Below are positions 20,406 through 56,582 of a stretch of DNA of 64,000 nt, one piece after another (the first letter of the stretch is position 1; the number at the start of each line of letters is the position of its first letter). Below the pieces are notes generated by a model. That model was not told the origin of the DNA. It worked only from the letters and a program-made list of their open reading frames with translations, and did no database searches. Origin of the DNA: a virus. The stretch covers positions 9,805 to 73,804 of IMG/VR virus record IMGVR_UViG_3300005439_000019. One strand, 5' to 3'. Made by a program: the position numbers and the translations under genes.

Positions 20406-20430
20406 TACAGCTTATCAAGGAAAGCTGTAT
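20406..20430 (-). promoter_or_regulatory. conserved promoter/operator motif (copy 3, perfect inverted repeat)
   Basis: Minus strand reads ATACAGCTTTCCTTGATAAGCTGTA-gca-GTG. Palindromic arms TACAGCTT/AAGCTGTA. Confidence 0.5.
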
Positions 20431-26500: not shown

Positions 26501-27707
26501 AGCCCGGCTTGCCCTCGGCGGTGCCTGTCCCGTAGTGCCCGATCGCGCAGTCGTTGCAGAGGAACGGCATGCCCTGGTTCTGCCAGTCGCCGGCTGCGCT
26601 GCTCTCGTACGGGCTGGTGAACGGGTGGCCGCAGTTGACGCAGCGGCCCGCGTCGGACGGCCACGGGAGCGCGGCGGACCTGCGCGACGCGGTGAACGGG
26701 TCCGGCGGCATCTGCCCCTCGTCCCCCCGGGGGCGGCGCGGCAGCTCGTGCCCTGACAGCTCCTCGAACCGGGCGTGCATGTACTCCCGCATCGCCTGCT
26801 GCGCCTGGTCGCGCCGTGCCTCGATGCCGGGGATCGACGCGAAGACGCCCTCGGGGTCGGCGGGGGTGGCGGGGTGGTCGCGCTTCATCCCGTCGTGGTG
26901 GTGCCAGCCGCCGTTGGCCTCCGGCTTGCGCATGTTGACCCGGACCTGCTCGCCGCAGACCAGGCAGTGCGTGCCCCCGTAGGTCTGGTCCCGGTTCACG
27001 GCCGTCCTCGCGGCGGCCTTCGCCATGCCCCGGGCGTCGGGCTTGCCGAGCAGGTACGCGGTCGGGTCGGCCGGGTCCTCGACCAGGAGCGAGTTCTCGA
27101 AGAACGACAGGCCGGCGCAGACCTCGTGGATCAGCTTCTCCTCGACCTTGCCGGTCACCTTGTTGCGCTGGCGGATCTTCTTGCCCTTCATAGCGGGCAG
27201 GTGCTTGCAGTACTCGGCGGGGCTGGTCGCCTTGTTGCCGCAGGCGGAGCAGCGCGACCACTCGACGTCCACGCCCATCGAGGTGCGGTTCACCCGCCCG
27301 GCGAGGATGGCCTTGGCCAGGCGCGGGAACCGCACGGCGTCGACCTCCATGAGGCCCTCGACCCAGGTGTCCGGCGTCCCGTCGGGGTTGCGGTCGCGGT
27401 GCAGGGCGATGGCGACGATGACGCCCCGTGCCCGGCGGTGGTTGGCGTTGTGGTGGTTGACGAAGACCGGCTTGCCGAGGAAGCTCTTGTACCCCTTCTC
27501 GATCTCATCGGCCGGGAACGTGTCGTGGTTGTCGTTGGTCCGGCTGGAGATCATCCGGGAGCGGACGTACAGGTAGCCCTGGCGCGGCTGGTAGTCGAAC
27601 GCGACGCGGTGGGCGGTCTTGAAGATCCGGCGCTCAGCGCCCGCGAGGCTGCCCGGGGCAGCGTGACGCCACGCCTCCAGTACCTCCAGCGTCGCGTACT
27701 TCCGCAC
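23523..27707 (-). CDS. giant prohead protease (HK97/S78-like N-terminus) fused to a zinc-ribbon-rich, acidic, scaffold-like protein (~1394 aa)
   Basis: Track ORF 23523..27893; probable GTG start at 27707 after GGGAGGA. KPVFVNHHNANHRRARG and NRTSMGVDVEW resemble the PLLWNHD and Ser motifs of HK97-family prohead proteases. Six or more CxxC pairs. Glu/Asp blocks. C-terminal coiled coil. Confidence 0.5.
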   Translation of the reverse strand: MRKYATLEVLEAWRHAAPGSLAGAERRIFKTAHRVAFDYQPRQGYLYVRSRMISSRTNDNHDTFPADEIEKGYKSFLGKPVFVNHHNANHRRARGVIVAIALHRDRNPDGTPDTWVEGLMEVDAVRFPRLAKAILAGRVNRTSMGVDVEWSRCSACGNKATSPAEYCKHLPAMKGKKIRQRNKVTGKVEEKLIHEVCAGLSFFENSLLVEDPADPTAYLLGKPDARGMAKAAARTAVNRDQTYGGTHCLVCGEQVRVNMRKPEANGGWHHHDGMKRDHPATPADPEGVFASIPGIEARRDQAQQAMREYMHARFEELSGHELPRRPRGDEGQMPPDPFTASRRSAALPWPSDAGRCVNCGHPFTSPYESSAAGDWQNQGMPFLCNDCAIGHYGTGTAEGKPGSVRYNSAGGTEQHPLEVERGYRDEGTEPFAPARQWNPEDAPMQSQSARKRPQGRPVRGYGRDARFDGVGLKKDRNGFYVHSRTHRSRSDSYPTVDDIPDSDIAEMRTSAAKKAEGGEHEWFKRHPVSSHHIVAAYHEASDDERALGDRWYSDAHHVAKVMGKGDAAMGAGVLSAYSVRTLWPVNLFNASRAFHGDPPGPGTGAMGVHQKAAVRILGGEHHSKVLKAPKTAAFAHLIEHGGDTDEDVRNGTEKVVVDRHAMSVAVGHRLTDTEKDGMPIGQHQHYEHVAHAYRQASRELSAHYGRKIAPHQVQAATWLVQIRKNAAEDASGSKGGGGKGRNQLGENSRTRWQERRRQHHPDIPEENMHYHGALAEGGTHCAGCGADFNEVGSPPSRMMPMLCQHCLGKIGWKEDTAMPGHWNQAHQQDTILGRTSRPMDYALRQSYNSLTRQAYGETRVPPQVDALRMDECPVCGEHNVWSGSRCPVCGFVVPPSVFRDPDTSKASEVRDQLDSSGDVEIPPDQPGAGQPGAPAQAEIGSGDDADEQLVHPDQIAPDGVPTVQGEGGPVPAGDTDGLPPDAVAEEEEAAAEEDEEAPEGAVPPEDEEGGDQAYAEELICPACGTTFEADAAAQPGVPCPACGMAALHPADEDGEGGEGAVPPEESEDPSAEGEQPEDEEDEEDEDKDMPADRKTAAALAQAQTRRIAELSARNAVLEAQLSFLASAAGVGRELAEIGRREMRRQADLLNPASPVPDPPQGPPSETTEQALAPEAMDNAGRPGTTPGANSRVPAMQTTTPITPGVEVQTPPATNLVDVTQPVQGTNPSQDGGVPLEQRRIETDVRIDPDPLKAHGPGIGGQGDNGAAFPWLLDARQPGQQQGAGGSVNASLSEAEASRRTFASIRLARLRVTAGIAHGEELAVAEHIERDAALSTALIEHEIGVLSAVAPQRQAARPPQQRTAARSVPSLAPVGASAQYAPAVMDDLDGSDLFL

Positions 27708-27762
27708 AGGGTCCTCCCGGTCTGCTCTCCTCTTCCGGGGCAGCCCGGGAACCCGTTGCTCA

Positions 27763-27783
27763 ATACAGCTTTTCTTGATATTC
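27763..27783 (+). promoter_or_regulatory. conserved promoter/operator motif (copy 4) in a divergent intergenic region
   Basis: ATACAGCTTTTCTTGATATTC between the minus gene start (27707) and the plus gene start (27835). Confidence 0.45.
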
Positions 27784-27834
27784 TCGTGCCAGCGAACGCA
27801 GAGCAGGGACGAAGCAGGGACACTGGAGGAGAAG

Positions 27835-28395
27835 ATGACCGAGATGACACTGGCCCAGCAGGTCGCCCAGGAGGCAGCCGGACGGGTCCACAAGCTCGCC
27901 CCCTACCTGACCGACGGCCGGCACCCGCTCACCCCCGGGCAGGCCGAGGGGATCATGCGGCACCTGGGCACGTGCCCGGTACGGCCAGCTCCGGAGGAGA
28001 ACGTGGCGCGTCACGACGCTCACAGGGCGGAAACGGATCACGAGCGTCACGCGGCAGGCCCCGTCATCGCCGACATCACGGCCGGGTTCTACGCCACGCC
28101 GAGCAGGACCGGCACCAACGACCTGGACTTCTGGAAGGTCACCGAGGGCCGCAGGCCCGGCATCCGGTTCGTCAAGCGGGTGGTCGGCGGCGGCGACGAC
28201 AAGTACCCCAGGCTGATCGAGATCTCCAACCAGGAGCAGCTCCAGGCGCTGCGGGCTATCCTGCGGGCAGGGATATCAGAGGCTGCCGACGTCTACGCCG
28301 TCAACCAGGAGCGCTGCAAGAAGTGCGGCAGCCAGCTTACTGACGAGGCGTCGCGGGCGGCCAGGATGGGGCCTGTATGCCGAGGAGAACGGTGA
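27835..28395 (+). CDS. hypothetical protein (186 aa)
   Basis: Frame of track ORF 27775..28395; ATG after GGAGGAG; C-terminal CKKCGSQ...C. Confidence 0.45.
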   Translation: MTEMTLAQQVAQEAAGRVHKLAPYLTDGRHPLTPGQAEGIMRHLGTCPVRPAPEENVARHDAHRAETDHERHAAGPVIADITAGFYATPSRTGTNDLDFWKVTEGRRPGIRFVKRVVGGGDDKYPRLIEISNQEQLQALRAILRAGISEAADVYAVNQERCKKCGSQLTDEASRAARMGPVCRGER

Positions 28396-33646: not shown

Positions 33647-33668
33647 AATACAGGATTTCTTGATATTG
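33647..33668 (+). promoter_or_regulatory. conserved promoter/operator motif (copy 5, degenerate)
   Basis: AATACAGGATTTCTTGATATTG upstream of 33721. Confidence 0.4.
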
Positions 33669-34535: not shown

Positions 34536-34952
34536 GTGCCTTACGCGATTGCCGGCGTGGTCGTCTTCGTCCTGCTCGTGGCCGGGGGCGTCGAGCTTGA
34601 CGACCTTATGCACGAGTACCCCGGCCAGTTCTACATGGGCGTCTTCGCCACACTGTTCATCGCCGTGGGCTGCGGCACCGCGCTGCTGCGCAGGGCCGCC
34701 AGGGGCGGGCACCAGGTGCCGCTCGTACGGGAGCTGCCTCCCCTGCCGAAGGCGATCCAGGCGGTGCCGGTCATGACCGCCGCCGCCGTGACGGCGGGGC
34801 CGCAGGAAGAGGTGGAGTGCGAGCGCCAGGACTGCGACCACAGGGTGGTCCCCAAGGCAGCCTGGGGCGTCCGGCTGGAGGGCGAGGCGAGGGAGCACCT
34901 GTTCTGCTCGGAGTGGTGCGCCCAGGCGTGGGACTCCGCCAGGGTGTCCTAG
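34536..34952 (+). CDS. membrane protein with C-terminal Cys/His cluster
   Basis: Frame of track ORF 34401..34952 from the GTG after GAGGAGG; two TM helices. Confidence 0.4.
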   Translation: MPYAIAGVVVFVLLVAGGVELDDLMHEYPGQFYMGVFATLFIAVGCGTALLRRAARGGHQVPLVRELPPLPKAIQAVPVMTAAAVTAGPQEEVECERQDCDHRVVPKAAWGVRLEGEAREHLFCSEWCAQAWDSARVS

Positions 34953-37900
34953 CCGGGCGCTCCCGCGTAGACGCGGCGCTGTGCCTCCTGGAAGGCGGTG
35001 TAGGCGAGGTCGGCGTCGCGCTCGGCGTCGTAGGCCTGGGCGTAGAGGAAGCCCGCCGACCCGTCGGTGCCGCCGGCCTGCCGCATCATCTTGTAGTTCG
35101 ACAGCTTCTGGTCGGCGATGATCTTCAGTGCCAGGTAGGAGGACCAGAGAGCCTCAAGGTCCGGGCCGGCCGTCGCCGACGCGGCGAGCAGCGGCGTGCC
35201 GGACAGCGCGGCCTGGCCGAACCGGGTGAACGCGGTGGCGTACAGCACCGGGAGCGCGTGCAGGGAGGCCGCCCCCTGGATGGGGATTTCCCCGGCGGCC
35301 GTCATCGTGCCCGGCGCGGCCAGGTGAGCTGTCCCGTTCTTCCCACGGGTCCCCTGGGCGTGCAGGATCGCGGCGGCAAGCAGCCCGGCAGTGAAGTGGA
35401 GGACACGGTGGCCGGCGGGGTGAAGCGCCCCCGAGCCGGACAGCGCGGCCGTGCCGGGCACCGTCCGGACGTGCCCGGCGAAGATCGTCCCGGACCCGGA
35501 GAGCGGCGCGACGGGGTTCTTGGCGACGGAGGGGGTGCCGCCGAAGGTCCCGATCCCCGACAGGGAGGCACCGGACGGGATGTTCTTCCGGGAGACGGCG
35601 GCCAGGGTGCCCGACCCTGACAGCGGGGCGTGGCCCTCGTGCCCGATGACGGCGGCGGAAGCAAGGGAGCCGGGTGCCGACATGGCGGCGGACGCGGCGT
35701 GCCCGTGGACCGGCGGGGCGGTCAGGGTCCCGGACCCGGAGAAGGCGACGACGCCCGGGACGAACTTCCTGCCGGCGGCGGTGAAGGTGCCGGACCCCGA
35801 CAGCGGGGCGAACCCCGCGAAGGTCATGATGAAGACGGCCGTGAGGGAGCCCGAGCCCGACAGCGCCGCTGCACCGGGCGAGATGACCAGCGCAGCGCCC
35901 CCGATGGACCCCGAGCCCGACATCGCTGCGGTACCCGGGACCAGCTTCTGGCCGGTGCCGGAGGCGGTGCCCGAGCCGGACAGGGAGACGGCGGCCTGGA
36001 CCAGCACCAGGGCCTGGCCGCTGAGGGTCCCTGAGCCGTCCAGGGCGATGACGCGCGAGAAGGCGACCAGGGCGGCTGCGGTGATGGTGCCCTGGCCGTC
36101 GAGGGGAGCGGCCCCGGGGACCAGCTTCTGGCCCGCTGCGGTGAACGTGCCGGAGCCGTTAAGTGCCGCCGCGCCTGATATGAACCCGCCCTCGACTGCC
36201 GTGATGCTGCCGGAGCCGTCCAGGGCTGCGGCACCGGGAACCGTCTTCTGCCCTGTGGCGGTGAAGCTCCCGGACCCCGACAGGACGGCGGTGCCGCCCG
36301 GGATGATGATCGTCGGCGGTGCCGTCAGGGTGCCCGAGCCGGACATCGCCGACGCGCCCGGGACCTGCTTCTGCCCGGTCGCGGTGACCGTCCCCTGGCC
36401 GTCGAGGGCCGCCGCGCCGGGGACGCTCTTCTGGCCCGTTGAGGTGATGACGCCCGAGCCCGACATGGAGGACGCGCCGGGCACCTGCTTCTGCCCGGTC
36501 GCGGTGAAAGTGCCCGAGCCGGACATCGAGGACGCAGCCGGGACGATGACCGTCGGGGGTGCCGTGACGGTTCCGGAGCCGGAGAGGGCGGCTGCTCCGG
36601 GAACCTGCTTCTGGGCGGTGGCCGCGATGGTCCCCGAGCCCGACAGGGAGGCGGCCCCGGCGAGCACCCCGGCGGCGGTGAGCGTCCCCGAGCCCGACAT
36701 CGCTGCGGTACCCGGGACCAGCTTCTGGCCGGTCGCGGTGAACGTCCCCGAGCCGGACAGGGCGGCCGAGCCGAAGGCGAAGATGGCGAAGGACCCGGTG
36801 AATGTCCCGATACCCGACAGGGAGGACGAGCCGGGAACCTGCTTCTGGGCGGTGGCAGTGATCGTGCCGGAGCCCGTGAGGGCTGCCGATCCCGCCAGGA
36901 CCCCGGCAGCGGTGAAAGTGCCCGAGCCGGACATCGCCGACGCGCCGGGGACAGTCTTCTGGCCCGTAGCCGTGAAGGTGCCGGACCCTGCCAGGGCGGC
37001 GCTGCCCGCGAAGACCCCGGCCGCCGTGATAGTCCCTGACCCGGTGAGGGCGGCAGCACCGGGCACCGTCTTCTGGCCGGCGGCGGTGATAGCACCCGAG
37101 CCTGACAGGGAGGCCGTGCCGGCGTGCGTGACGGTTGCCTTGAACGTCGCGGCGACGGCAGTGTAGTCGGCGGCCGTCGTCTGCGTCCCGGAGTAGGTGA
37201 CAGCCCCCGTGCTGGTCAGCACCTGGTAGCCGGCGACCAGGCCCATGACCCCGCCGGGCGAGTTCTGCTGCGCCAGGTTGAACCACGGGCTCGACGGCCC
37301 GCTGATCGTGCCGATGGACGGGCTGGCGAAGGCCCCCACCGCCCCGATGGCGACCTCGGAGGCCTGGGTGGTCGCCGCCGTCGCCCCGGAGGACCAGGAG
37401 GTAACCGTGGTGTCGCTGATCCCGCTGGAGGTCTTGTCGGGGGTAGCGGTGTTGGCCAAGCCGAACCACTCCATGACCGTGACCATGAGGGCGGCCCCGG
37501 TGCCCGAGGACGTGAAGGTAATGGAGAGCGCCGTCTGGCCGCCGGCGCAGTTGGGGTCAGCCCAGATCGCCGTCGTCATGAAATCAGAGGAGACGTTCCC
37601 GGCGGTGAGCGACTGCGCGAAGTTGTCGGCGCTGCCGCCGAGGGTGATCCCGGTGACGCTCGGGTTGTTGGTGCCCGCGTCCCCGGTGACGCACACGATC
37701 AGGCAGTTGCCGGAGGTCGTCGTCCAGGGCAGGGTTATGGATACCGGCGATGCAGCGCCGTTGCCCGTCACCGACTGGACGAGCGACGGCTTCCCCTGGA
37801 TGCCCCCGGTCGCCCTGATCGTGCCGGAGCCCGACAGGGAGGCGGTACCGCTGTGAGTGGTGCCCACGGCTTTGAACGTGGCGATGAGGGCCGCACCGTC

Positions 37901-38521
37901 AGATGACGAGGCGAACGTTCCCGCGTAGGACGGCGTGCCCGTCGCGGAAAGCACGTTGTAGCCGACGAGCAGGCCCACGTGCGTGCTGGCGCTGGTGACC
38001 TGGGTGAGGTTGGTCCACGGGGACGACGGCCCGGTGATGGTCCCGACGCCGCTGCCGTTGAAGGTGCCGACCGCGCCGATCGCGACCTCGGACGCCTGGG
38101 TGGTCGTTGCCGTGGTACCCGACGACCAGGAGGTGATAGCCGATGCGACGTTCCCGGCTGTCTTATCCACGGGCGTCGTGGTGGCGATCCCCGACCATTC
38201 CATGACGATCACGTCGACCGACCCGGAGGCGGCGCTGACCGTGACCACGACGGAGGTCTGCCCGCCGGCGCAGTTCGGGTCGGACCAGAGGTACACCGAC
38301 TCGCTGTCAACGGACGGGTTCCCGGCCGTGGCCGACTGCGCGAAGTTGCCGGCCGAGCCGCCGAGGGTGATCCCGCTGACCGTGGGGTTCGTCGGAGACG
38401 ACGAGGTGACGACGGCAACGACCAGGCAGTTACCTGCCGTCGTGCTCGACGTCAGGGTAACGGTCACCGTTGTCACGGAGGCCGCTGTCGCTGACTTCGA
38501 CTGGACAAGCGACGGGGCCAC
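34949..38521 (-). CDS. fibre-like protein (1190 aa): duplicated ~230-aa N-terminal domain plus ~36 tandem 17-aa repeats
   Basis: ORF track. Two N-terminal copies of a domain (..NCLVVAVVTSSSPTNPTVSGITLGGSAGNFAQS..DPNCAGGQT..), then 17-aa repeats of consensus A-A-L-S-G-S-G-T-I-T-A-x-G-Q-K-x-V-P-G. Homologous repeats occur in 11060..13162. Confidence 0.55.
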   Translation of the reverse strand: MAPSLVQSKSATAASVTTVTVTLTSSTTAGNCLVVAVVTSSSPTNPTVSGITLGGSAGNFAQSATAGNPSVDSESVYLWSDPNCAGGQTSVVVTVSAASGSVDVIVMEWSGIATTTPVDKTAGNVASAITSWSSGTTATTTQASEVAIGAVGTFNGSGVGTITGPSSPWTNLTQVTSASTHVGLLVGYNVLSATGTPSYAGTFASSSDGAALIATFKAVGTTHSGTASLSGSGTIRATGGIQGKPSLVQSVTGNGAASPVSITLPWTTTSGNCLIVCVTGDAGTNNPSVTGITLGGSADNFAQSLTAGNVSSDFMTTAIWADPNCAGGQTALSITFTSSGTGAALMVTVMEWFGLANTATPDKTSSGISDTTVTSWSSGATAATTQASEVAIGAVGAFASPSIGTISGPSSPWFNLAQQNSPGGVMGLVAGYQVLTSTGAVTYSGTQTTAADYTAVAATFKATVTHAGTASLSGSGAITAAGQKTVPGAAALTGSGTITAAGVFAGSAALAGSGTFTATGQKTVPGASAMSGSGTFTAAGVLAGSAALTGSGTITATAQKQVPGSSSLSGIGTFTGSFAIFAFGSAALSGSGTFTATGQKLVPGTAAMSGSGTLTAAGVLAGAASLSGSGTIAATAQKQVPGAAALSGSGTVTAPPTVIVPAASSMSGSGTFTATGQKQVPGASSMSGSGVITSTGQKSVPGAAALDGQGTVTATGQKQVPGASAMSGSGTLTAPPTIIIPGGTAVLSGSGSFTATGQKTVPGAAALDGSGSITAVEGGFISGAAALNGSGTFTAAGQKLVPGAAPLDGQGTITAAALVAFSRVIALDGSGTLSGQALVLVQAAVSLSGSGTASGTGQKLVPGTAAMSGSGSIGGAALVISPGAAALSGSGSLTAVFIMTFAGFAPLSGSGTFTAAGRKFVPGVVAFSGSGTLTAPPVHGHAASAAMSAPGSLASAAVIGHEGHAPLSGSGTLAAVSRKNIPSGASLSGIGTFGGTPSVAKNPVAPLSGSGTIFAGHVRTVPGTAALSGSGALHPAGHRVLHFTAGLLAAAILHAQGTRGKNGTAHLAAPGTMTAAGEIPIQGAASLHALPVLYATAFTRFGQAALSGTPLLAASATAGPDLEALWSSYLALKIIADQKLSNYKMMRQAGGTDGSAGFLYAQAYDAERDADLAYTAFQEAQRRVYAGAPG
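35250..37100 (-). repeat. ~36 tandem copies of a 51-bp coding repeat (17-aa SGSGT repeat)
   Basis: Repeated SLSGSGTITA-GQK-VPGAAA units across aa ~475-1090 of the ORF 34949..38521 translation. Confidence 0.55.
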
Positions 38522-38597
38522 GGGCGCGCCTCCCTCCTATGAGGCCCGCGTGCGGCCGGGCGGTCCTAGCGCCGCGCCGCGTTCCTGGGCGACGCGG

Positions 38598-39011
38598 TTA
38601 CCAGACGCTTGCGTCGCAGGTCACGGCCCCGGAGGCGAACTGAACCGTGTCACCGTTCGCGACCCCGGTGATATTGGCGGTCAGAGCGCCCTGGAACCAG
38701 CGGAGCGGGGTGCCTGCGGTGTCCCAGATCTCGACTGAGGTGATGGTCGTCCAGGAGCCGGTCGCCGTCCACGACGGGGTGTTAGACGAGGTGGACACGC
38801 CGGAGGAGTTCGCGCCAAAGGTGATCGCTACGCCGCCGGCGGTGTAGCCGGGGCAGTTACCTGAGGTGGCCTCGGTGCCGTTGGAGGTGTTGGACCCCTG
38901 GGCGGTCATCAGCCGCAGGTGCAGGGCGGTCGGGTAGGTCGGGGCGGACCCGCCGTGCAGGATCGCGTCCATGATGGACGCGGCGCGGGTCCGGTCGGTC
39001 ATCGATGCCAT
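38598..39011 (-). CDS. hypothetical structural (tail-fibre-associated?) protein
   Basis: ORF track; Thr/Ser/Gly-rich. Confidence 0.4.
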   Translation of the reverse strand: MASMTDRTRAASIMDAILHGGSAPTYPTALHLRLMTAQGSNTSNGTEATSGNCPGYTAGGVAITFGANSSGVSTSSNTPSWTATGSWTTITSVEIWDTAGTPLRWFQGALTANITGVANGDTVQFASGAVTCDASVW

Positions 39012-39012
39012 G

Positions 39013-39219
39013 TCAGGAAACCTCCGCGCTGAAGCCGGCCAGGATGATGGTCACGGGGCGGCAGGGGATTCCGGTTTCCCTGTTCGCCTGCCCGTGGTTG
39101 TGGGGCTGCGTGCAGCACTTGCAGCCCGCCGCGTCCAGCGCGTCGTGGATGTCCACGTCATCGGAGGTGACGGCGGCGACCGCCGTGCACTCCTTGTTCA
39201 CGCACTGCACCAGGTGCAT
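39013..39219 (-). CDS. small Cys-rich protein (68 aa)
   Basis: Own translation MHLVQCVNKECTAVAAV...CKCCTQPH (tail of track ORF 39013..40065); high GC3. Confidence 0.4.
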   Translation of the reverse strand: MHLVQCVNKECTAVAAVTSDDVDIHDALDAAGCKCCTQPHNHGQANRETGIPCRPVTIILAGFSAEVS

Positions 39220-39230
39220 GCCGGTCCTCC

Positions 39231-41507
39231 TCACCCCCGCGCGGGGGCGTAGCTCTCGTAATCCACCAGGTCGCCGTCGTCCTCGGTCACGCCGAGGCGC
39301 GAGCGGATTCCGACGTGCGGCGGGTCCTGGTAGCCCCGGATCGACGGGCCGGAGAACCAGGTGCCCTGTCCCTTCTGGGCCTGCGCCTCGCTTTCTGCCT
39401 GGTGCGCCGCGAGGACGGGCAGGCCGTCGCTCCCGGAGGCGGCGATATCCCCCTCCAGGGCGGCCTCGTTGACGGCACGGGCCAGGGCTGCCATGCGGCG
39501 CACCCGGTCGGAGCGGCGCATCAGCGCCCCCTGCTTCGGCATGCCGCGCTTGCCGGCCTTCGGCATCGGGCCGCGCTGCTCGGAGGACTCCGGCGGTACC
39601 TGCGGCATGCCGCCCGCGTCCTCTCCGGCGATCTCGCCCTCGCTCGGGGCGTTGACCGGGCCGCCCGCCTGGGCCTCCATCTCCTCGGCCATCTGCTGGT
39701 CCTCGGGGGTGGGCGCGAGGTCCGGCAGGGGCAGCGGCTGGACGCCCATCCGGTCGATCATCATCTGCTGGGCGGCCAGGGCCGGGGGAACGCCCTCCAC
39801 CTGGGCGACGGGGGAGAAGTCGGCCATGAGGTCCGGCGGGACGGGCAGGCCCTGGTTGCGCAGCTCGACGAACGCCTGGCGGCGGGTGCGGGCCTGGGCG
39901 ATGATGTCGGCGACCGCCTCGTCCTGGCTCTGCTCGCGCTCCTCGTCCAGGTCGACCCCGAGCCCCCGCGTGCGCGTGCGAGCGGAGATCGGGATGCCGG
40001 AGGCGCGCAGCGCCTCGGTGAACTGGCGGGTGATGTCCTCGTCCCGGAAGTTGAGGACCTGGCACTTGAGGTCGGGCACCAGGAGCTTGGGCTGCTCGGT
40101 GATCCGCTTCTCGCCGGTCTCCTCGTCGGTCTCCAGGACCTCCTCCATGATCACGAAGCGGCGGCCGGAGCGCTCCTCGTAGTCATAGTGTTCCTGCGCT
40201 TCAGCAACAATGAGCATCCGCTTGCGCATGTGCCTCATGAGCATCTGCTGGTAGGTGGTCATGAGCTGCTCGACGAGCTGCTTGTTGAGCGCGTCGGCGG
40301 CGTACGTCTGCCCCTCGCCCGCCCCGGTGAGGAACGTCCTGGACAGGCCGAACACCTGGAGAACCCGGTCCTCGATCCGCTCGAAGTCCATGCTCAGGTC
40401 AGGCATGTTCTCCCGGCCGAACACCGGCTCGATCTCCACCGCGAAGTTGTGGATCAGCGCCCGGAAGTCGCCCGCGAGGGCGGCGTCCAGCGCCATCTCG
40501 AAGTTCTCCAGGTCATCGTCGGTGGGAATCCACGGGACGCTGGTGCCGAGGTCGGTGGCGGACGCGCCGAGCTTGCACAGGATCAGCGGGGTGTAGAGCC
40601 GGTCGGCGATCGAGTCGAGCGCGGTGTTGAGCATCTCCTGCTGGAGCATGGAGCGCATCGCCCGGGTGAGCAGCGGCAGGCCCCGCAGGCTGAAGGTGTC
40701 GCCCTTGAACCGGAGCTGGCGCAGCAGGATGTTGCTGACCGGCATGAATGCGTTCTCGGCGGTGTAGGCGGCCAGCTCCGGGTACTCCTGGACCAGCCGG
40801 TTGTACTCCCAGGCCGGCTGGCGGGTGGTGAGGATCTGCCGGATCGTCCACGGCAGCCGGGTGAAGTACCGGGGCTCCTTCAGGAACGGGCTGCGCTCCA
40901 CCTTGATGTCGTCGGCGTTGAGCAGCTCCTCGTCGTCCCAGATGCCCAGGTCCTCGTTGAACGTGGCGAACGGCCACGCCTCCCCGGTGATGTAGTACTC
41001 GCGGCCGATGTCGACGAGGAACTCGCCGTAGTCAAGGCCGTCGTCGCCGAAGAACAGGTCCTGGTAGAAGTCGGTGAGCCGCTGGTCCTTGCACTCCAGG
41101 TGCGCCCCGACGACAGGGAACTTGCTGAAGATGTCGACGCAGGAGCCGACGATCGGGTCGGTCTGGTAGAGCAGCCGGCAGAACGCCCGGACCTTCGCCA
41201 GCTCCTCGTTCTGGGAGAAGTCGTAGGGGAGGTTGTTCTGCCGCCAGTAGAACAGCGGGTCCCTGGGCCGTCCGGTGGCGAACTGGATGTCGGAGAAGCC
41301 AGACCCCCCGGCTCCCCCGGCCGTGTAGGCGGTGCGGCGGCCGACGGACGCCTGCCGGGCGTTGATCCGCCGGTTCTTGCGGGCCTCGGCGACCTCGGGG
41401 CTCATCTGCTCGGAGCTGAGCGCACCGACGCCCATCGTCCGGCCGAGCTGCCTGGCTACTGACGCCTGCCGGGCGGTGCCCGACCCCGGCCTGTACGCGA
41501 CTCGCAT
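39231..41507 (-). CDS. portal (head-tail connector)-like protein, 758 aa
   Basis: ORF track. Size, head-module context and an acidic C-terminal tail. No recognisable ATPase motifs. Family resemblance only. Confidence 0.45.
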   Translation of the reverse strand: MRVAYRPGSGTARQASVARQLGRTMGVGALSSEQMSPEVAEARKNRRINARQASVGRRTAYTAGGAGGSGFSDIQFATGRPRDPLFYWRQNNLPYDFSQNEELAKVRAFCRLLYQTDPIVGSCVDIFSKFPVVGAHLECKDQRLTDFYQDLFFGDDGLDYGEFLVDIGREYYITGEAWPFATFNEDLGIWDDEELLNADDIKVERSPFLKEPRYFTRLPWTIRQILTTRQPAWEYNRLVQEYPELAAYTAENAFMPVSNILLRQLRFKGDTFSLRGLPLLTRAMRSMLQQEMLNTALDSIADRLYTPLILCKLGASATDLGTSVPWIPTDDDLENFEMALDAALAGDFRALIHNFAVEIEPVFGRENMPDLSMDFERIEDRVLQVFGLSRTFLTGAGEGQTYAADALNKQLVEQLMTTYQQMLMRHMRKRMLIVAEAQEHYDYEERSGRRFVIMEEVLETDEETGEKRITEQPKLLVPDLKCQVLNFRDEDITRQFTEALRASGIPISARTRTRGLGVDLDEEREQSQDEAVADIIAQARTRRQAFVELRNQGLPVPPDLMADFSPVAQVEGVPPALAAQQMMIDRMGVQPLPLPDLAPTPEDQQMAEEMEAQAGGPVNAPSEGEIAGEDAGGMPQVPPESSEQRGPMPKAGKRGMPKQGALMRRSDRVRRMAALARAVNEAALEGDIAASGSDGLPVLAAHQAESEAQAQKGQGTWFSGPSIRGYQDPPHVGIRSRLGVTEDDGDLVDYESYAPARG

Positions 41508-41559
41508 CTGACCTCCTACCCCTTCCGGGGAGGAGGTCAGGAGGTCAGGTCAACTGCCT

Positions 41560-42021
41560 CTACTCGTAGTGGCTGAAGCGGGCGTCGTACGGGTTGTCCG
41601 CGATCCACCGCTTCGCCGTCCCTGCGGTGCCCTCCGGGTCGCCCGCCGCAGCCGCGCGCTGCCACTGCTCGCCCATCGCCCGCACCACGTGCGGGTGCCG
41701 CAGCTCCCTGAAGGCGTTAGCGGCGACGCTGTGGTCATGGGGGCCGAGGTCGGACCAGACAGCCCCGCCCGTCGGGTCACCGGGGTGGAGGGCCATCATG
41801 TGCCACCTGTTGCTCTCGGCGTCCAGGTGGAAGCCGATCTTGTGCCCGGTTTCCAGGCGCAGGTTGTCATCGGGCCAGTACTCCCTGCCCGGGTGCAGGC
41901 CGTGCGCCTGGAGCTGCTCCTCCACCCGGTTGGTGCGCTCCTGCAACTCGCCGAACGGGATAGCCCACGTCCCCCGGTGCCCCCGGTAGTGGTACGGGTA
42001 AGCGTTCTCGCCGTAAATCAT
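41560..42021 (-). CDS. His-rich paralogue family member 1 (153 aa)
   Basis: Frame of track ORF 41560..42168 from MIYGEN after a GGAGGA SD. Motifs LETGHKIGFH, LHPGDP, HPHVVRAMGEQWQRA shared with the three upstream paralogues. Confidence 0.45.
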   Translation of the reverse strand: MIYGENAYPYHYRGHRGTWAIPFGELQERTNRVEEQLQAHGLHPGREYWPDDNLRLETGHKIGFHLDAESNRWHMMALHPGDPTGGAVWSDLGPHDHSVAANAFRELRHPHVVRAMGEQWQRAAAAGDPEGTAGTAKRWIADNPYDARFSHYE

Positions 42022-42194
42022 CAGGGTCCTCCGCGTCGAGGATCGCCTGCGCCAGCTCGCGCCACCCGGCCCAGGTGCGAGCGGGGTGGAGGATGATCCA
42101 CTGGCCGTCGCAGTGGCTGGTGAACTCGGGGATGCCGTCAGCGCCGAGGAGGCGGCGGCCGGAATCACCGGATGGCTGGAGGCTGCTCACGCTG

Positions 42195-42647
42195 TCATCC
42201 TTCCGGTTCCTGCTCGGGGTAGTGGGCGAAGACGTGGGAGGTGACCTGCGGGTAGGGCCGCCTCTGGTCACTGATCCCGTGCGGGGTGCCGTTGGCGTAG
42301 GCGCGCTGCATCTGCTCGCCCATCGCCCGCACCACATCCCGGTGGTGCAGCTCCTGAATCGCCCGGTGCTGGACCAGGTGATCGGTCATGCCCAGGTCCG
42401 ACTCGATCATCGTGTTGTCCGGGTCACCGTGGTGGTGGACCTCCATCCTCCAGCGGCCCGTTTGCGGGCTCAACTGGAAGTGGGCGAAGTGCCCGGTCTC
42501 CATCGGCATGACGAAGGGCCAGTCCTTGTCGGTCATCCCGGAGTCCTGCATGCCGCCGAGCACTGTCCCGTTGCGCCGCTTCAGCTCCCCGTGGGAGAGG
42601 TTCTCGCCTGGGCGCACGTAGTCGTCGGGGGGTTCCTGCCAGGGCAT
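42195..42647 (-). CDS. His-rich paralogue family member 2
   Basis: Frame of track ORF 42195..43019 from MPWQEPP; METGHFAHF, HHHGDP, HRDVVRAMGEQMQRA; TGATG overlap with the upstream gene. Confidence 0.45.
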   Translation of the reverse strand: MPWQEPPDDYVRPGENLSHGELKRRNGTVLGGMQDSGMTDKDWPFVMPMETGHFAHFQLSPQTGRWRMEVHHHGDPDNTMIESDLGMTDHLVQHRAIQELHHRDVVRAMGEQMQRAYANGTPHGISDQRRPYPQVTSHVFAHYPEQEPEG

Positions 42648-43057
42648 CAGACCTCGAACTTCCTGTACCAGCGGGGCTCCGGCTGGCCACGGTGCTGCAT
42701 CATCTCGCGCATCGAGGCCATGACCCCCGGGTGGCGCAGCATGGCGTGGACGGACTCGCCGAGCCGGGAGTGGTCGCCGCCGAGGTCGCCGTGCTCGACC
42801 TGGAGGATGCGCGAGAGGGCGGGCCGGTCGTCCTCGTGGGTGACGTACGACGTCCACTGGCCGTCCTCGCCGCCGAGCAGCGTCTCGACGTGGTGGCCGG
42901 TGTCGTAGGTGGCCCCGGGCTGCTCGTTCTCGGGGTGGCTGCGGGGGAGCAGGCCGTGCGCCTTCATTGAGCGCACGCCCTCGGCGATGCCCTGCACGTG
43001 CTCGTCCTCGCCCATCCACCGGCCGGCAGCGCGCCGTACCGCCTCGAAGGCTCCCAT
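42647..43057 (-). CDS. His-rich paralogue family member 3
   Basis: ORF track; YDTGHHVETL, HGDLGGDH, HPGVMASMREMMQHR. Confidence 0.45.
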   Translation of the reverse strand: MGAFEAVRRAAGRWMGEDEHVQGIAEGVRSMKAHGLLPRSHPENEQPGATYDTGHHVETLLGGEDGQWTSYVTHEDDRPALSRILQVEHGDLGGDHSRLGESVHAMLRHPGVMASMREMMQHRGQPEPRWYRKFEV

Positions 43058-43707
43058 CAGCGCCCCCGCGTCATGTCGAGGAGCAGCCGGTTCCCCGTCT
43101 GGGCCGGGCCGCGCCCCTGCGCCCGGTCCATCTGGTCGCGCATGTGGCCCAGGACGTCCGGCCGCCTGAACATGCCGTGCAGCAGCGGGCCGACGTGCTC
43201 AGGAACCTCGCCGAGGTGCGCCTCCACGACGTGGCCCTGGTCCCCTTGCGGGTGCCAAACCTGGACGTGGAAGCCAGGCCGGGGGTCCGCGCCGAACAGC
43301 CCCTCGTTCTCCTCGCGGCCTCGTGGCCCCACGTGGTACAGCCACATCTTGTGCCCGGTGTCGAGTCGCATCTGGGAGTCGGGGAAGCCGTGCTCGGCGA
43401 GCGAGTCCTTCATCCGGTCCCAGTCCCCACCGTCGCCGAAGACGTCCCTCGGGTCGTCTATGTTCCTCACTGCGGTGAACCTGGGGCTGCGGGAAGCGTC
43501 TGGCGAACCGCGCCATTCTGGCTCATGGTCACGGTGGTCCTCCTCGTGCATGTGCATCAGCACGTGCAGCGGGAGCATCCCCGCCACCCCGAGCTGGTGG
43601 GTGCCGTCCATGTGGGCGCGCAGCTCCGCCAGGTCCCGCAGGGGCTCGTGCCCCTCGGGGACCGCCGTGCGGATGAACGCCTCCGCCAGGCGAAGGCTAG
43701 TAGTCAT
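43057..43707 (-). CDS. His-rich paralogue family member 4 (216 aa)
   Basis: ORF track; LDTGHKMWLYH, WHPQGDQGH, RPDVLGHMRDQMDRA. Confidence 0.45.
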   Translation of the reverse strand: MTTSLRLAEAFIRTAVPEGHEPLRDLAELRAHMDGTHQLGVAGMLPLHVLMHMHEEDHRDHEPEWRGSPDASRSPRFTAVRNIDDPRDVFGDGGDWDRMKDSLAEHGFPDSQMRLDTGHKMWLYHVGPRGREENEGLFGADPRPGFHVQVWHPQGDQGHVVEAHLGEVPEHVGPLLHGMFRRPDVLGHMRDQMDRAQGRGPAQTGNRLLLDMTRGR

Positions 43708-44872
43708 CGCCGATCCCGTGCTGGCGCAGCCAGTCCTGGTCGCCGAGGTGGATGTCCTCGCCGTACTCGCCCTCCAGGTCGGGGTGCACGTGCTCCAGGC
43801 GGGCGTCGGCGTGCTCGTTGCGGTGCGTGTCGTCGATCACCCAGTCCGGGTCGTCAGGCGTATCGACGAACCCGTGCCGGTCCCTCATGTGCCGCCGCAG
43901 CTCGCCCTCGCTCATTTCATCGTGGCTGGGATCTACGCGCACGGCGGCCCTACCGAAAGGGCGGCGGCCCCTGGAAGCCTGGCGGGACGGGGTGCCCTGA
44001 AGGCGCTGCGGGGCAGCGTTCCACCACTCGCCGGGAGCATCCTGGGGCATGCCCGGCTGGCCGCCCGCGTGGCCCGGGGTGGTGGAGTCGATGAACGACC
44101 TGGCGAGGCCGGTGCCGAGCTGGCGCTCCGCCTCGGCGTGCGGGTCGCTGCCCTGGCCGAGGTGCATGTAGTGGACCTGCTGGTAGGCAGGGTGGCGGAT
44201 GACGCCGTACCAGTCGCCGCCCATGCGCCCGACCGACACCTGGTGCCCGGTGGGCAGGGTGCGGTAAACGGCCTCCCCGGTCGCCGCAGCGCGCCGGGTG
44301 CCCCCCTCGGCGCGCAGCCGGGCCATGACCCGGGGGTCAGCGCCGGACAGCCGGACGGCCAGGTGGCGGACAAGCTGCGCTTCGGTGAGAGACTGCCCCT
44401 CAAGGCCACGGAAACGAGCAGATTCCTTCTTGTTCTTCCCCTTACCGGACTTCTCGTCCTTCTTCGGGGGAAACGGCGTATCGTCGTCACCGCCATCATC
44501 GCCAGGCGGAAGTTCCTCACCGTCCGGCGGGATACCCTCAGGCCCGCCTTCCGCTGCGGCATCACCGGGAGGCGGGCCTTCCCCGTCTGCGGGCATGCCG
44601 TCAGGCCCGACCATGGCGGGGTCGAGCAGCCCGCCGTCCGGGCCGGTGTCGGAGGGGGCTCCGGGACCCATCGGCATCTGGGGCATCCCGGGGAACGCCG
44701 GCTGGACGCGGACGATGTAGTTCTGCCCGCAGAAGTCGCAGCCGATCGTGCCGTCGGAGCGGCCGACCACCTGGCCAGAGCCGCAGAACGGGCAGTGGCT
44801 GGTGACCAGCGGGTCGCCGGGGTCATGGGCTGTCCTGCGGCCGACGCCGCGCGGCCGGGTGCTCGTGTTCAT
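43697..44872 (-). CDS. zinc-ribbon protein with long Pro/Gly/Asp-rich linker (391 aa)
   Basis: ORF track; N-terminal CPFCGSGQ...CDFCG; low-complexity middle; conserved-looking C-terminus. Confidence 0.45.
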   Translation of the reverse strand: MNTSTRPRGVGRRTAHDPGDPLVTSHCPFCGSGQVVGRSDGTIGCDFCGQNYIVRVQPAFPGMPQMPMGPGAPSDTGPDGGLLDPAMVGPDGMPADGEGPPPGDAAAEGGPEGIPPDGEELPPGDDGGDDDTPFPPKKDEKSGKGKNKKESARFRGLEGQSLTEAQLVRHLAVRLSGADPRVMARLRAEGGTRRAAATGEAVYRTLPTGHQVSVGRMGGDWYGVIRHPAYQQVHYMHLGQGSDPHAEAERQLGTGLARSFIDSTTPGHAGGQPGMPQDAPGEWWNAAPQRLQGTPSRQASRGRRPFGRAAVRVDPSHDEMSEGELRRHMRDRHGFVDTPDDPDWVIDDTHRNEHADARLEHVHPDLEGEYGEDIHLGDQDWLRQHGIGDDY

Positions 44873-44896
44873 GGGGCCTCCTGCCCCTTCCGAGCG

Positions 44897-45112
44897 TCAC
44901 AGCGCGACCTCCCCGCCGGCCATGTCCGAAAGGCGGAGCCCCTTGGCGTTGCGGTACCCCTCGGCCCACGTCATCGCCTCCTGGCCGAGGTGGTCAGCGA
45001 GCGCCTTCCTCGCCCCGGCGAACGTGCCGAAGACGCGCTCGCCGTCTACCGGGTCCTCGGTTTCCGCGATCCCGCCCGTGGCATTCGACCCGGACCACCA
45101 CCTGTAGTTCAT
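44897..45112 (-). CDS. hypothetical small protein
   Basis: ORF track. Confidence 0.35.
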   Translation of the reverse strand: MNYRWWSGSNATGGIAETEDPVDGERVFGTFAGARKALADHLGQEAMTWAEGYRNAKGLRLSDMAGGEVAL

Positions 45113-45140
45113 GCCCCGATTCTATGCTGCTCTCTTGGAA

Positions 45141-45164
45141 ATATACAGCTTTTCTTGATAAGCT
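45141..45164 (+). promoter_or_regulatory. conserved promoter/operator motif (copy 6); leaderless start of the long plus-strand operon
   Basis: TATACAGCTTTTCTTGATAAGCTG-cgggaATG. The TAAGCT -10 element lies 6 nt before the ATG. Confidence 0.5.
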
Positions 45165-45169
45165 GCGGG

Positions 45170-45554
45170 AATGAGCGTGAAGAGCAGGAACGGCTCATGG
45201 AAGGGGCCTACGAGCATGAGTGAGACTAGCCAGGAGCCGGGCGGGTTCAGCGTCGCGGTGGTCACCGGCTTCAGCCCGGTCGAGATCTCGATCCAGCACC
45301 TCGTCCTGGACATCGACCCGGACGACTTCTTCACCACCGACAACATGCCGCGCGGACGGGACTACGGGTTCGACGCGGTAGACGTCGGCTACGCCATCGA
45401 GGACGCCGGGTACGAGCCGACCTCCGACCTCCAGTGGACAGGCACCCACTGGGCCTACGTCGTGCAGCCGAAGACAGACCCGGCCGGTGACCCGCGCTAC
45501 CACCCCGGGAAGCTCCCGCCGCTCAGGGCGTGGGAGCAGGGCGGCTACGAGTGA
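45170..45554 (+). CDS. hypothetical protein
   Basis: ORF track. Confidence 0.45.
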
Positions 45555-45838
45555 CTAGCCGGCAGCCGGAGCGCACGCTCGTCTTCAGGTACGACGGTGA
45601 CGGGCGCTGCTGGTTCTCCGCCCCTCAGGCGGACGTGACGGGCATGCGGTACCCGGCCCGCTGCACCCGGTGCGGGCACGTCTACGACCTGGCCGCGCTG
45701 CGGAACGTCCTGCGGTACGCCGAGTGCGACGTCTGGAGCTGCCCAGGCTGCCGGGTCACCGTCAGCGACCGCACCGGGTCGCCCGATCATCACTACACCG
45801 AACTCGGTGCCGACGGTTACGAGAAGAGGCCATCATGA
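45551..45838 (+). CDS. Cys-rich zinc-binding protein (95 aa)
   Basis: GTGA overlap; frame of track ORF 45530..45838; CTRCGHVYD...CPGC. Confidence 0.4.
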   Translation: MTSRQPERTLVFRYDGDGRCWFSAPQADVTGMRYPARCTRCGHVYDLAALRNVLRYAECDVWSCPGCRVTVSDRTGSPDHHYTELGADGYEKRPS

Positions 45839-46461
45839 AGCCCAGGACCGTGCAGGAGAGGCTGGACGCGGCGGGCGGCCTGCCGGCGCTCGAAGAGGCC
45901 GTCGGCATCCCGGCGGCGCAGTGGGGCGGCAACTGCCACGGGATCTCCCTGGCGGTGCTGAAGAGCGGTCTGCTCGGCTCGGGGCGGGTAGCGCGCGGCA
46001 CAGCGCGCGGGGTGACCAGCCAGCACTCGTGGATCATCCTCGGGGACGAGCCGCTGCCCAGCGTTTACAGCGAGGAGTCGGTGATCGCCGACCCGACGAT
46101 CTTCAGCTACGAGCGACGGGACCCGTACGTCCTGGTCAAGCAGAACCTGATGCACACCCACTGGCCGCACGGGGCCGGGGACATCTGGACGCAGGGCGGC
46201 CCGCCTCCCGAGCCGACGGGGAAGCTGATCGAGCTGGAAGGCTACGAGGGCCTGTCCGAGCTGGCCAGGTCCTTCCTGGAGCTGTGCGGCTACCCGCTGG
46301 ACTACCGGGGCTGGGCGCACCTCGTGCACGGCCCGGCCGAGGGGTGGCCCTGCGGGGAGATCGTCACCGCCATGTGCGCCACGAAGGAGCTGGCCGTCGT
46401 CACGCCGATCGACGTCATCGGCATGACCACCGAACTCAACCCGAAGGGGCTGTACTGGTGA
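45835..46461 (+). CDS. hypothetical protein (208 aa)
   Basis: ATGA overlap; frame of track ORF 45670..46461 from MKPRTVQERL. Confidence 0.45.
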   Translation: MKPRTVQERLDAAGGLPALEEAVGIPAAQWGGNCHGISLAVLKSGLLGSGRVARGTARGVTSQHSWIILGDEPLPSVYSEESVIADPTIFSYERRDPYVLVKQNLMHTHWPHGAGDIWTQGGPPPEPTGKLIELEGYEGLSELARSFLELCGYPLDYRGWAHLVHGPAEGWPCGEIVTAMCATKELAVVTPIDVIGMTTELNPKGLYW

Positions 46462-47283: not shown

Positions 47284-48096
47284 ATGACCCGCAGGAGGAT
47301 TATCGCCGGGTGCGAGTGCTCCGGGATGGTGGCGAACGCCTTCGCCGAGCTGCTCGGCTGGGAGGCATACTCCTGGGACACCGAGCCGGGCGAGATGCCG
47401 GACCGGGACTACCCGAATGGCGGAACCTACCGGCATGTCCAGGGCAACATCCTCGACGACCCGGAGGCGGGCACGCTCGGGGCGTTCAACTGGTATCACC
47501 CGGTGAACCGCCAGCGGGCGCAGGAGGCTGACGAGGCCGAGAGCGCACGCGGCGAGAGCATCCCGCTGTGGGACTTCGGGGCATTCTTCCCGCCGTGCAC
47601 CCACCTGAGCCAGGCGGGCGCGGTGTGGTGGAAGCACAAGGACGCCACCCGGGGCGGCGACGGCCGGATGCAGGAGGGCGCGGCGTTCTTCATGCAGATG
47701 GTGAAGCTGGGCCGCGCCACGTGCACGTACTCCGCCGTGGAGAACCCGGTCGGGGTGATGGGCCTGCCCAGCCAGTCGTGCTACTACCGGCGGCCCGACC
47801 AGGTGGTGCAGCCGCACATGTTCGGCGACCCGCTGATCAAGGCGACGTGCTTCTGGCTGGAAGGGCTGCCCCTCCTGACCGCCGACAGGCCGGTCGAGCC
47901 GACCGGACGGGTGGCGACCGGCGGCGGGAGCTGGCGCACCGACCAGCGTCACGGGCGCGGGGCGAACAACGGCCACGAGGACGCCAAGGGCCGCAGGTTC
48001 CGGCAGCGCGAGCGCAACCGGACCCTGCCCGGCCTGGCCAGGGTGATGGCCGAGCAGTGGGGCACGTGGATCGAGTCGCAGGAGCGCGCCGCGTGA
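47284..48096 (+). CDS. DNA (cytosine-5) methyltransferase-like (orphan, compact)
   Basis: ORF track; motif IV-like FPPCTHLSQAG and ENV-like AVENPVGVMG. Confidence 0.5.
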   Translation: MTRRRIIAGCECSGMVANAFAELLGWEAYSWDTEPGEMPDRDYPNGGTYRHVQGNILDDPEAGTLGAFNWYHPVNRQRAQEADEAESARGESIPLWDFGAFFPPCTHLSQAGAVWWKHKDATRGGDGRMQEGAAFFMQMVKLGRATCTYSAVENPVGVMGLPSQSCYYRRPDQVVQPHMFGDPLIKATCFWLEGLPLLTADRPVEPTGRVATGGGSWRTDQRHGRGANNGHEDAKGRRFRQRERNRTLPGLARVMAEQWGTWIESQERAA

Positions 48097-49511: not shown

Positions 49512-49512
49512 A

Positions 49513-49538
49513 ATACAGCTTTCCTTGATAAGCTGTAT
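49513..49538 (+). promoter_or_regulatory. conserved promoter/operator motif (copy 7, full palindrome)
   Basis: ATACAGCTTTCCTTGATAAGCTGTAT followed by a GGGAGGG SD and the GTG at 49565. Confidence 0.5.
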
Positions 49539-52321: not shown

Positions 52322-52504
52322 ATGCAGAGGGTGCTGCTGGCGGTCGAGGCGTTCGCGCCTGACGGCATGAGCGAGGGCGAGGCCTCGCAGGACGTGTACC
52401 TGGCGCTGCGGGCGGCGTTCGCTTCCAGGGACATGCTGGTCGAGGTCAGTCACGTCAAGACAATGATGATTGCTTCCGATTTATCAAGAAAAGCTGTATC
52501 CTGA
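52322..52504 (+). CDS. hypothetical small protein; C-terminus reads through the motif
   Basis: Track ORF 52304..52504. Confidence 0.25.
   Translation: MQRVLLAVEAFAPDGMSEGEASQDVYLALRAAFASRDMLVEVSHVKTMMIASDLSRKAVS
52481..52499 (-). promoter_or_regulatory. conserved motif (copy 8, half-site in reverse orientation)
   Basis: TTATCAAGAAAAGCTGTAT. On the plus strand, TGTATCCT plus a 7-nt spacer precedes the ATG at 52510. Confidence 0.35.
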
Positions 52505-56386: not shown

Positions 56387-56561
56387 CGGGGTGCTCCGTT
56401 ACCTGGTTTCATTGGCAACGTGAAGCCGAGCGAGGACCTCCGGGAGTGCGGCCGGGCCGGGTGCGGCCACCAGCGCCGCGTCCATGACCACTACACGCAC
56501 TCGACCTATTGCAGCACGACCGGGTGCCTGTGCCGGAAATGGCACCGGCCCCGTAGAGGAA

Positions 56562-56582
56562 ATACAGGCTTTGTTGATATCC
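56562..56582 (+). promoter_or_regulatory. conserved promoter/operator motif (copy 9, degenerate)
   Basis: ATACAGGCTTTGTTGATATCC upstream of a GGAAGGGAG SD and the ATG at 56621. Confidence 0.4.

Follow-up and report, generated by a model that had tools for sequence, protein, structure and literature searches.

What stands directly upstream of the portal gene in a large actinophage, at a place where a large terminase might be looked for? The question is raised by a 64,000-nucleotide stretch of viral DNA (IMG/VR record IMGVR_UViG_3300005439_000019, positions 9,805 to 73,804; the window, with a G+C content of ~70%), in which an earlier note had picked out four tandem His-rich genes and a zinc-ribbon gene at 41560-44872 where it expected such a terminase. 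The four genes encode homologous proteins built on one domain, here called the His-domain, that matches no known family. The locus is a hypervariable accessory module of the head operon in an uncultured soil actinophage of ~160-165 kb, whose portal and capsid are kin to those of the cluster C, E3 and Skog myoviruses. The reading we favour, tentatively and at somewhat less than an even chance, is that the array is a head cargo module. It would be produced along with the portal, enter the prohead by way of the zinc-ribbon partner, reach the cell together with the DNA and act there through a site of two histidines and acidic residues.

The His-domain family

The head-gene operon is read leftward on the minus strand from a divergent junction near 45112-45171. 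Its order is a gene of 71 amino acids (aa), the 391-aa zinc-ribbon gene, four genes of 216, 136, 150 and 153 aa (paralogues 1 to 4) and the portal. The features of the array are listed here with hidden Markov model (HMM) E-values, AlphaFold2 scores (pLDDT, predicted local distance difference test; pTM, predicted template modelling) and G+C at third codon positions (GC3).

43697-44872, minus strand: zinc-ribbon protein, 391 aa
44729-44794, minus strand: its Cys4 zinc ribbon CPFCG...CDFCG, three short β-strands, pLDDT 65-84
44063-44422, minus strand: its folded core, aa 151-270, two helices and a divergent fifth His-domain (PTGH...IRHP...LG)
43057-43707, minus strand: paralogue 1, 216 aa, HMM 5e-40 (His-domain) and 4e-46 (N-terminal His-rich module)
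42647-43057, minus strand: paralogue 2, 136 aa, HMM 3.5e-34, TGATG overlap at both ends
42195-42647, minus strand: paralogue 3, 150 aa (the gene callers also give 150 aa), HMM 1e-30
41867-42190, minus strand: small unrelated gene within the array, GC3 0.97, homologues in 6 loci
41560-42021, minus strand: paralogue 4, 153 aa, HMM 1.8e-36, pLDDT 84, pTM 0.80
39231-41507, minus strand: portal, 758 aa, phrog_2833, E 1e-143

The homology of the four tandem genes, proposed from the letters, is borne out by alignment. BLASTP matched the 150- and 153-aa paralogues at 44% identity (E 7e-21) and the remaining pairs at E 5e-5 to 5e-3, and the family HMM matched all four with E 1e-30 to 5e-40. Their histidine content is indeed high, 8.1-8.6% against 2.2% in 13 other genes of the window. 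The earlier note gave their sizes as 153-216 aa; the range is 136-216 aa. Of the three motifs that it listed as common to all, TGH is present in 4/4 paralogues, while H..GDP and the exact third motif are found in two and in looser form in the other two. It also had the genes translationally coupled by TGATG overlaps. Such overlaps join the 216- to the 136-aa gene and the 136- to the 150-aa gene. The 391- and 216-aa genes overlap by 11 nt, and before the 153-aa gene there is no such coupling and the extra small gene intervenes. The reading frame of each array gene is backed by GC3 frame plots.

Across 135 domain instances the conserved elements are (E/D)-(T/S)-G-H, with G in 100% and H in 99%, a second His in 88%, mostly within H-P-x-D, and L-G in 93-97%; the last helices show a hydrophobic/Met pattern. 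In a six-frame translation of the 64 kb the family HMM found, outside the four paralogues, only the 391-aa protein (E 0.0017, aa ~181-246). This weak match, together with the matching order of structural elements in the model, indicates that the 391-aa protein carries a fifth, divergent copy. The window thus has four His-domain copies and a weak fifth, and none elsewhere.

Close orthologues of paralogues 1 to 4 are 93, 88, 57 and 84% identical (P0006 for paralogue 1, P0007 for paralogue 2), and the neighbours in the window are only 25-44% identical to each other; the paralogues are therefore old, retained subfamilies and not recent duplicates. Orthologues of paralogue 4 are present in both of the syntenic loci examined first, L006 and L003, at 78% and 61% identity. 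Paralogue 1 consists of an N-terminal His-rich helical module, containing HEEDH, fused to a His-domain, and this module is a separate 71-aa gene in L006. A zincin (HExxH) identity of the module was rejected: relatives have HDxxH or HAxxH instead of HEEDH, the module is only ~50-60 aa long (a two-helix pair in the copy of the 391-aa protein) and no peptidase profile matches it. Likewise, the H-x-T/S-x pattern of 2H phosphoesterases was absent from the His-domain on inspection.

The 153-aa protein was modelled with AlphaFold2 from 39 sequences, with the scores listed above. The model has a helix (23-39), three strands (61-67, 72-78, 87-93), two helices (96-108, 110-125) and a strand (147-150). 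The His-domain is thus predicted to be an α/β unit of ~110 aa, in which a helix is followed by three to four strands and two helices, and no fold relative could be assigned to it with confidence. In the model of the 391-aa protein, made from 118 sequences, aa 151-270 (pLDDT 93-96) form two helices followed by the strand and helix order of the 153-aa model, aa 60-150 are disordered and a His-rich helix pair lies at aa 322-355. In both models the two conserved histidines are positioned just before strand 1 and just after strand 2 of one hairpin (H60/H79 in the 153-aa protein, H210/H227 in the 391-aa protein). Judged by the strand register they would be cross-strand neighbours, and a metal site or a catalytic pair with the nearby E57 and D82 is plausible. 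The metal-ligand patterns suspected earlier are therefore structurally plausible, the conserved histidines flanking one hairpin in two independent models.

The statement that the proteins belong to no known family or fold held in every search made. The paralogues match no model in Pfam, PHROGs or NCBIfam, in Pfam none at E up to 1, and sequence-profile searches of the PDB gave only chance or low-complexity matches. None of the paralogues matches PF12699, an inner-head family of phiKZ and SPN3US. A type III secretion chaperone or YbjN-like fold was considered and dropped, as no clear superposition on the αβββαββα fold was obtained. Among 50,697 phage records, tblastn detected nothing similar to the 153- or the 391-aa protein. 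When 5.8 billion proteins were searched through a word index, a single sequence gave 5 relatives and a profile 35, and an exhaustive HMMER search of 1.84 billion representatives gave only 83 proteins at E ≤ 0.001. All traced contigs with family members are metagenome assemblies. Judged by these searches, the His-domain family appears to be previously undescribed and restricted to uncultured soil phages. Because no Pfam, PHROGs or NCBIfam model matches it, the family deserves a name and a profile.

The zinc-ribbon gene and its variable neighbours

The 391-aa protein begins with a Cys4 ribbon (aa 27-48), as noted earlier from its CPFC...CDFC pattern, followed by the long Pro/Gly/Asp linker also noted then, which is acidic and disordered (aa ~60-150), the core (aa 151-270) and the His-rich helix pair (aa ~320-355). 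It has no Pfam, PHROGs or NCBIfam match above threshold; Lar and SH3 matches were sub-threshold only. The similarity to the Lar restriction-alleviation ribbon (PF14354; 15.5 bits for the window protein and 18.5-19.6 for relatives, at a gathering threshold of 28.6) was set aside as generic to zinc ribbons. The exact 391-aa protein was found in several metagenome assemblies, some of them from the JGI (Joint Genome Institute), the largest contig being 162,409 bp. At least 148 homologues were found, many on contigs of 160-167 kb, and they are far commoner than the His-domain. A search of 185,579 bacterial and archaeal species genomes with the zinc-ribbon alignment found no relative, hence no prophage or host clue. 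At the N-terminus invariance exceeds 90% (AHDPGDP..TSHCPFCGSGQ..GRSDGTI.C.FCG.NYIVRVQPAFPG); behind it comes another conserved block, YR.L.G..LTE....RH.AV..SG..P.V.A.R. Several relatives contain inteins inserted directly before the first ribbon Cys. LAGLIDADG inteins were seen in the zinc-ribbon genes P0160, P0060 and P0107, that of P0160 immediately before the first Cys of CPFCG. The zinc-ribbon gene is an unusual intein host; inteins being a sign of high conservation, their presence in the ribbon fits a strongly conserved core gene.

A set of 28 IMG/VR loci with the zinc-ribbon gene was compared. In all 28 the gene is found 0.2-5 kb upstream of the portal, in the same orientation. Nineteen of the loci have no His-domain copy, and the remaining nine have 2, 3, 2, 4, 9, 9, 2, 7 and 3. 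The copies are confined to the interval from the zinc-ribbon gene to the portal, apart from two in L023, L024 and L033 that sit just upstream of the former. Similarly related loci can differ widely in count: L025 and L026, at 59-61% zinc-ribbon identity, have none, and L023, at 63%, has nine. On these comparisons the zinc-ribbon gene is the portal's conserved partner, and the His-rich array is an optional insert whose copy number varies. This partnership, the fifth domain copy and the small gene within the array had escaped the earlier note.

In some relatives the modules are joined. P0156 (1139 aa) is a zinc-ribbon protein with five His-domains, and the portal comes directly after it; P0158, P0159 and P0160 resemble it, and the polyproteins next to the portal in relatives are 947-1185 aa long. 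In P0046 and P0135 the zinc-ribbon protein is joined to the His-rich helical module and to a His-domain. The module borders of the polyproteins are marked by a boundary peptide (..I/V-R-R/K-A-A.. or EASLRRRAA), which also forms the N-terminus of many free-standing copies and was found in 37 of 124 instances against 4.4 expected. The C-terminus of the prohead protease fusion encoded in the same operon (EASRRTFASIRLARL) bears a loose likeness to this motif by eye, treated as chance. The fixed neighbourhood, the repeated fusion and the translational coupling link the His-domains with the zinc-ribbon protein, and that protein in turn with the portal.

Such ties could also mean that the proteins are portal-vertex or prohead assembly factors, chaperone- or scaffold-like and later removed. 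The strict linkage of the zinc-ribbon gene to the portal would suit this, as would the acidic disordered linker, since the protease/scaffold fusion of this operon has similar ones. An essential factor, however, should not vary from 0 to 9 copies among close relatives, and 19 of the 28 loci have none. We regard an assembly role as rather improbable.

Portal lineage and the terminase

The portal is 36-38% identical to the portals of phages E3 and Skog and is of the type found in the large actinophage myoviruses of cluster C, Rhodococcus phage E3 and Gordonia phage Skog. In E3 and Skog nothing is annotated as terminase within 8 kb upstream of the portal. The Skog terL, at 3539-5740, is next to the lysis genes and 60 kb from the portal (66444-69053). 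The expectation of a large terminase at this place thus does not hold for the lineage; the missing terL of the window is normal for it and is no evidence on the function of the array. A search for terL throughout the 64 kb gave none: tblastn with the Skog terL found no match in the window, the terminase families of PHROGs matched none of its large open reading frames (ORFs), and no Pfam or PHROGs terminase model matched the array proteins. In pattern scans of IMG/VR with the Skog terL and a six-sequence terL alignment, the matched contigs were never those with the zinc-ribbon gene.

The array proteins resemble terminase subunits only in their position upstream of the portal, and they are without ATPase or nuclease motifs. 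A Walker A motif, [GA]xxxxGK[ST], is absent from all six proteins examined, in line with the earlier note, which had seen no Walker A terminase. Without it, and without a match to a terminase model or to the Skog terL, an identity as large subunit was rejected; that of a small subunit was rejected likewise, no terminase profile or fold matching. A wider role in packaging, the direction in which the earlier note pointed, would make the zinc-ribbon protein a DNA-recognition subunit like a small terminase and the paralogues its accessories. The spot just upstream of the portal is the usual one for terS and terL in many phages, and with its zinc ribbon, basic patch and helical domain the protein could bind DNA. 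This is nevertheless very improbable, given a window with no terL, a Skog terL 60 kb from the portal, proteins with no terminase profile or fold match and no Walker A, and a 90-aa acidic disordered linker that is not a feature of terS.

Possible roles: head cargo or anti-defence

The modules between the zinc-ribbon gene and the portal are His-domains, the His-rich helix pair and a few small extras. As head cargo they would, first, be co-produced with the portal, as separate translationally coupled genes in the window and as one polyprotein in some relatives. Second, they would enter the prohead through the partnership of zinc-ribbon protein and portal. Third, they would pass out together with the DNA when a new host is infected and would act there. 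The acting site would consist of the two cross-strand histidines and nearby acidic residues (E/D-T/S-G-H ... H-P-x-D), and its ligand would be a metal ion or a target in the host. The sequences and models show that the modules are homologous, vary in copy number, keep a fixed position, are fused in some relatives, have confident models and match no known family; that they are co-expressed with the portal, encapsidated and ejected, and that they bind a metal or target, is what we infer from the arrangement. The further proposal that the His-domain is a new fold and a capsid-delivered, metal-dependent effector, made as separate genes or as a cleavable polyprotein anchored by the zinc-ribbon portal partner, is unlikely; if true, it would be a previously unseen class of injected actinophage proteins, possibly directed against host defence.

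The array shares its operon, with stop/start overlaps, with the portal, a head-protein-like gene, a prohead protease and the major capsid protein. On the 3' side of the portal these follow in the order head-protein-like gene, two very large proteins, the prohead protease fusion of up to 1456 aa and the major capsid protein. The protease fusion, whose true start is probably near 27755, also has a DUF7178 domain, several CxxC...CxxC ribbons and long acidic Pro/Gly linkers like that of the 391-aa protein. The first gene of the operon has homologues at the equivalent position in L021 and L031 and no PHROGs or NCBIfam match. The operon features outside the array are:

44897-45112, minus strand: first gene of the operon, 71 aa, no known family, GC3 0.93
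41508-41540, minus strand: hairpin between paralogue 4 and the portal, by fold energy against shuffled sequences
23523-27893, minus strand: large prohead protease fusion, phrog_18299 head maturation protease (8e-21), DUF7178
20746-21771: major capsid protein, phrog_2522

Loci of this type have precedents, in the sense of a variable set of paralogues on the head module of a large phage; the family itself is without detectable relatives. In giant phages the head and ejection paralogue families have 2-7 and 2-20 members across phages (PMC5694885). The phiKZ inner-body proteins and the SPN3US families A and B are likewise head paralogues of large myoviruses. Their copy number differs strikingly from one related phage to another, and some of the proteins undergo cleavage by the prohead protease and are ejected along with the DNA (PMC5694885). 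They have no sequence or profile similarity to the array, they belong to another host group and lineage, and their presence in the virion has been shown, whereas the array is known from genes alone; its copies, moreover, are small (~110-aa domains) and His-rich.

The internal proteins (IP) IPI, IPII and IPIII of phage T4 are a second comparison. They are small and variable, share a short N-terminal peptide (the capsid targeting sequence) and depend on the prohead protease. The array operon also encodes a prohead protease, and part of the family has the N-terminal or boundary peptide. The peptide is missing, however, in two of the four paralogues of the window, there is no homology to the T4 proteins, and cleavage of the array proteins is only conjectural.

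A third comparison is with the phage multidomain proteins encoded among virion genes, for which packaging and injection were proposed and whose domains include 2H and GNAT (Iyer et al. 2017, PMC5512222). In the same work 2H/LigT phosphoesterases are described among capsid-deployed effectors, and certain mycobacteriophages are described as having GNAT as a solo gene amid their late structural genes (PMC5512222). The long polyproteins beside the portal in relatives of the array resemble these polyvalent proteins (PMC5512222), and one relative, P0221, fuses a His-domain to a 2H/LigT phosphoesterase above the Pfam cut-off; in another a GNAT match is weak and below the cut-off. Unlike them, the relatives of the array mostly repeat one uncharacterised domain instead of varied known effectors, and in the window the modules are separate genes. 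A 1516-aa protein with an Arr-type ADP-ribosyltransferase domain (PF12120) was seen in L003 (19074-20462 and onward, on an 84-kb contig), a few genes downstream of the portal, and may be a packaged polyvalent effector.

The head cargo module is favoured because of the ties to the zinc-ribbon protein and the portal, the prohead protease in the operon, the known variable head and ejection families and the proposals of packaged multidomain proteins. Several points weigh against it. The family is known from genes of uncultured phages alone. The putative structural role of the zinc-ribbon protein is read from gene adjacency, and the possible metal binding from sequence and strand register and not from coordinates. 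The boundary peptide is absent from the 150- and 153-aa types; a search for its pattern in the other head proteins of the window gave one match only, the N-terminus of the 136-aa paralogue, and processing of the array proteins by the protease is unsupported. Non-structural anti-defence loci, too, typically contain small, variable, coupled genes of unknown function. The array is at the very start of the operon beside a divergent block of small genes, a position that would also suit early accessory genes. Finally, a strong hairpin, possibly a terminator, separates the array from the portal.

The last points lead to the chief alternative, that the array encodes non-virion anti-defence or host-takeover proteins, expressed from the operon start, which would act as inhibitors or by sequestering in the infected cell and would never be packaged. 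The 0-9 copies among close relatives, the small coupled genes of an orphan family and the position beside the divergent block would all be expected of such proteins, and two regulatory features bear on it directly.

The first is the hairpin. Its 81-nt fold has an energy of -40.2 kcal/mol (z -4.2), and it lies immediately ahead of the start codon of the portal. Its 3' arm holds the Shine-Dalgarno sequence of that gene, AGGAGG, which pairs with a CCUCC tract further upstream. A similar hairpin is present in L006 (z -3.7); in L003 a shorter CCCUCC...GGGAGG pairing is no better than shuffled sequences (z 0.28). The hairpin could limit translation of the portal, couple the portal to the upstream gene or end the transcript; in the last case the array would have a transcript of its own. 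A scan of 38500-46000 found no sigma-70 promoter and no U-tract terminator.

The second is a 19-nt motif, AATACAGCTTTCCTTGATA, which occurs 10 times in the window against 0 expected:

18000-18018, 19555-19573, 20413-20431 and 52482-52500, minus strand: 19-nt motif
27762-27780, 33647-33665, 45142-45160, 49512-49530, 56561-56579 and 60532-60550, plus strand: 19-nt motif

Most copies checked lie 11-110 nt upstream of a gene on the same strand, and the motif is a possible promoter or regulator site specific to the phage. In relatives, the divergent-region copy always faces away from the operon of the zinc-ribbon gene. The phages with 7 and 9 His-domain copies have an extra motif just upstream of the main part of the array, pointing into it, as would suit separately expressed genes. 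On the other side, the array is enclosed in every case by the zinc-ribbon/portal gene pair and shares its strand, the outlying copies noted above aside, and its domains are repeatedly fused to the conserved zinc-ribbon protein. An anti-defence or host-takeover role is accordingly somewhat unlikely in our estimate; it would make the array a new family of that kind.

If the array is head cargo, a whole clade of large soil actinophages has its cargo slot here: a fixed zinc-ribbon/portal pair with freely expanding His-rich modules between them. This would be a testable way into the question of what large actinophages bring into their hosts. A new domain with a confident model and no detectable relatives would be gained as well, and its natural fusion and fission variants could show how cargo is targeted to the head.

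The small gene within the array starts with GTG at 42190 in a frame unlike those of its neighbours, and the GC3 value of 0.97 is that of 42051-42140. About 56 aa are conserved (W..L.P..TW..WR.LAQAILD), with no stop near the conserved end, and the ORF overlaps ~155 nt of the 153-aa gene in another frame. Its homologues in six related loci lie within the equivalent interval; in the window the gene callers leave this stretch empty. Two other explanations were ruled out, a decayed His-domain copy by these homologues and an assembly error by the identical sequence in three independent assemblies.

Elsewhere in the window, a 1190-aa protein with no family match is encoded just downstream of the portal region (34949-38521, minus strand) and contains many units of ~20 aa (60 nt) of the type SGSGT.TA.GQK.VPG. 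The divergent block of small genes includes a DNA methyltransferase-like gene (47284-48096, plus strand; phrog_757, E 2e-41). A cluster of 21 tRNA genes, including tRNA-His(GTG), lies at 60-4194 on the plus strand, and one ARAGORN call within it, at 3086-3166, has a four-base anticodon.

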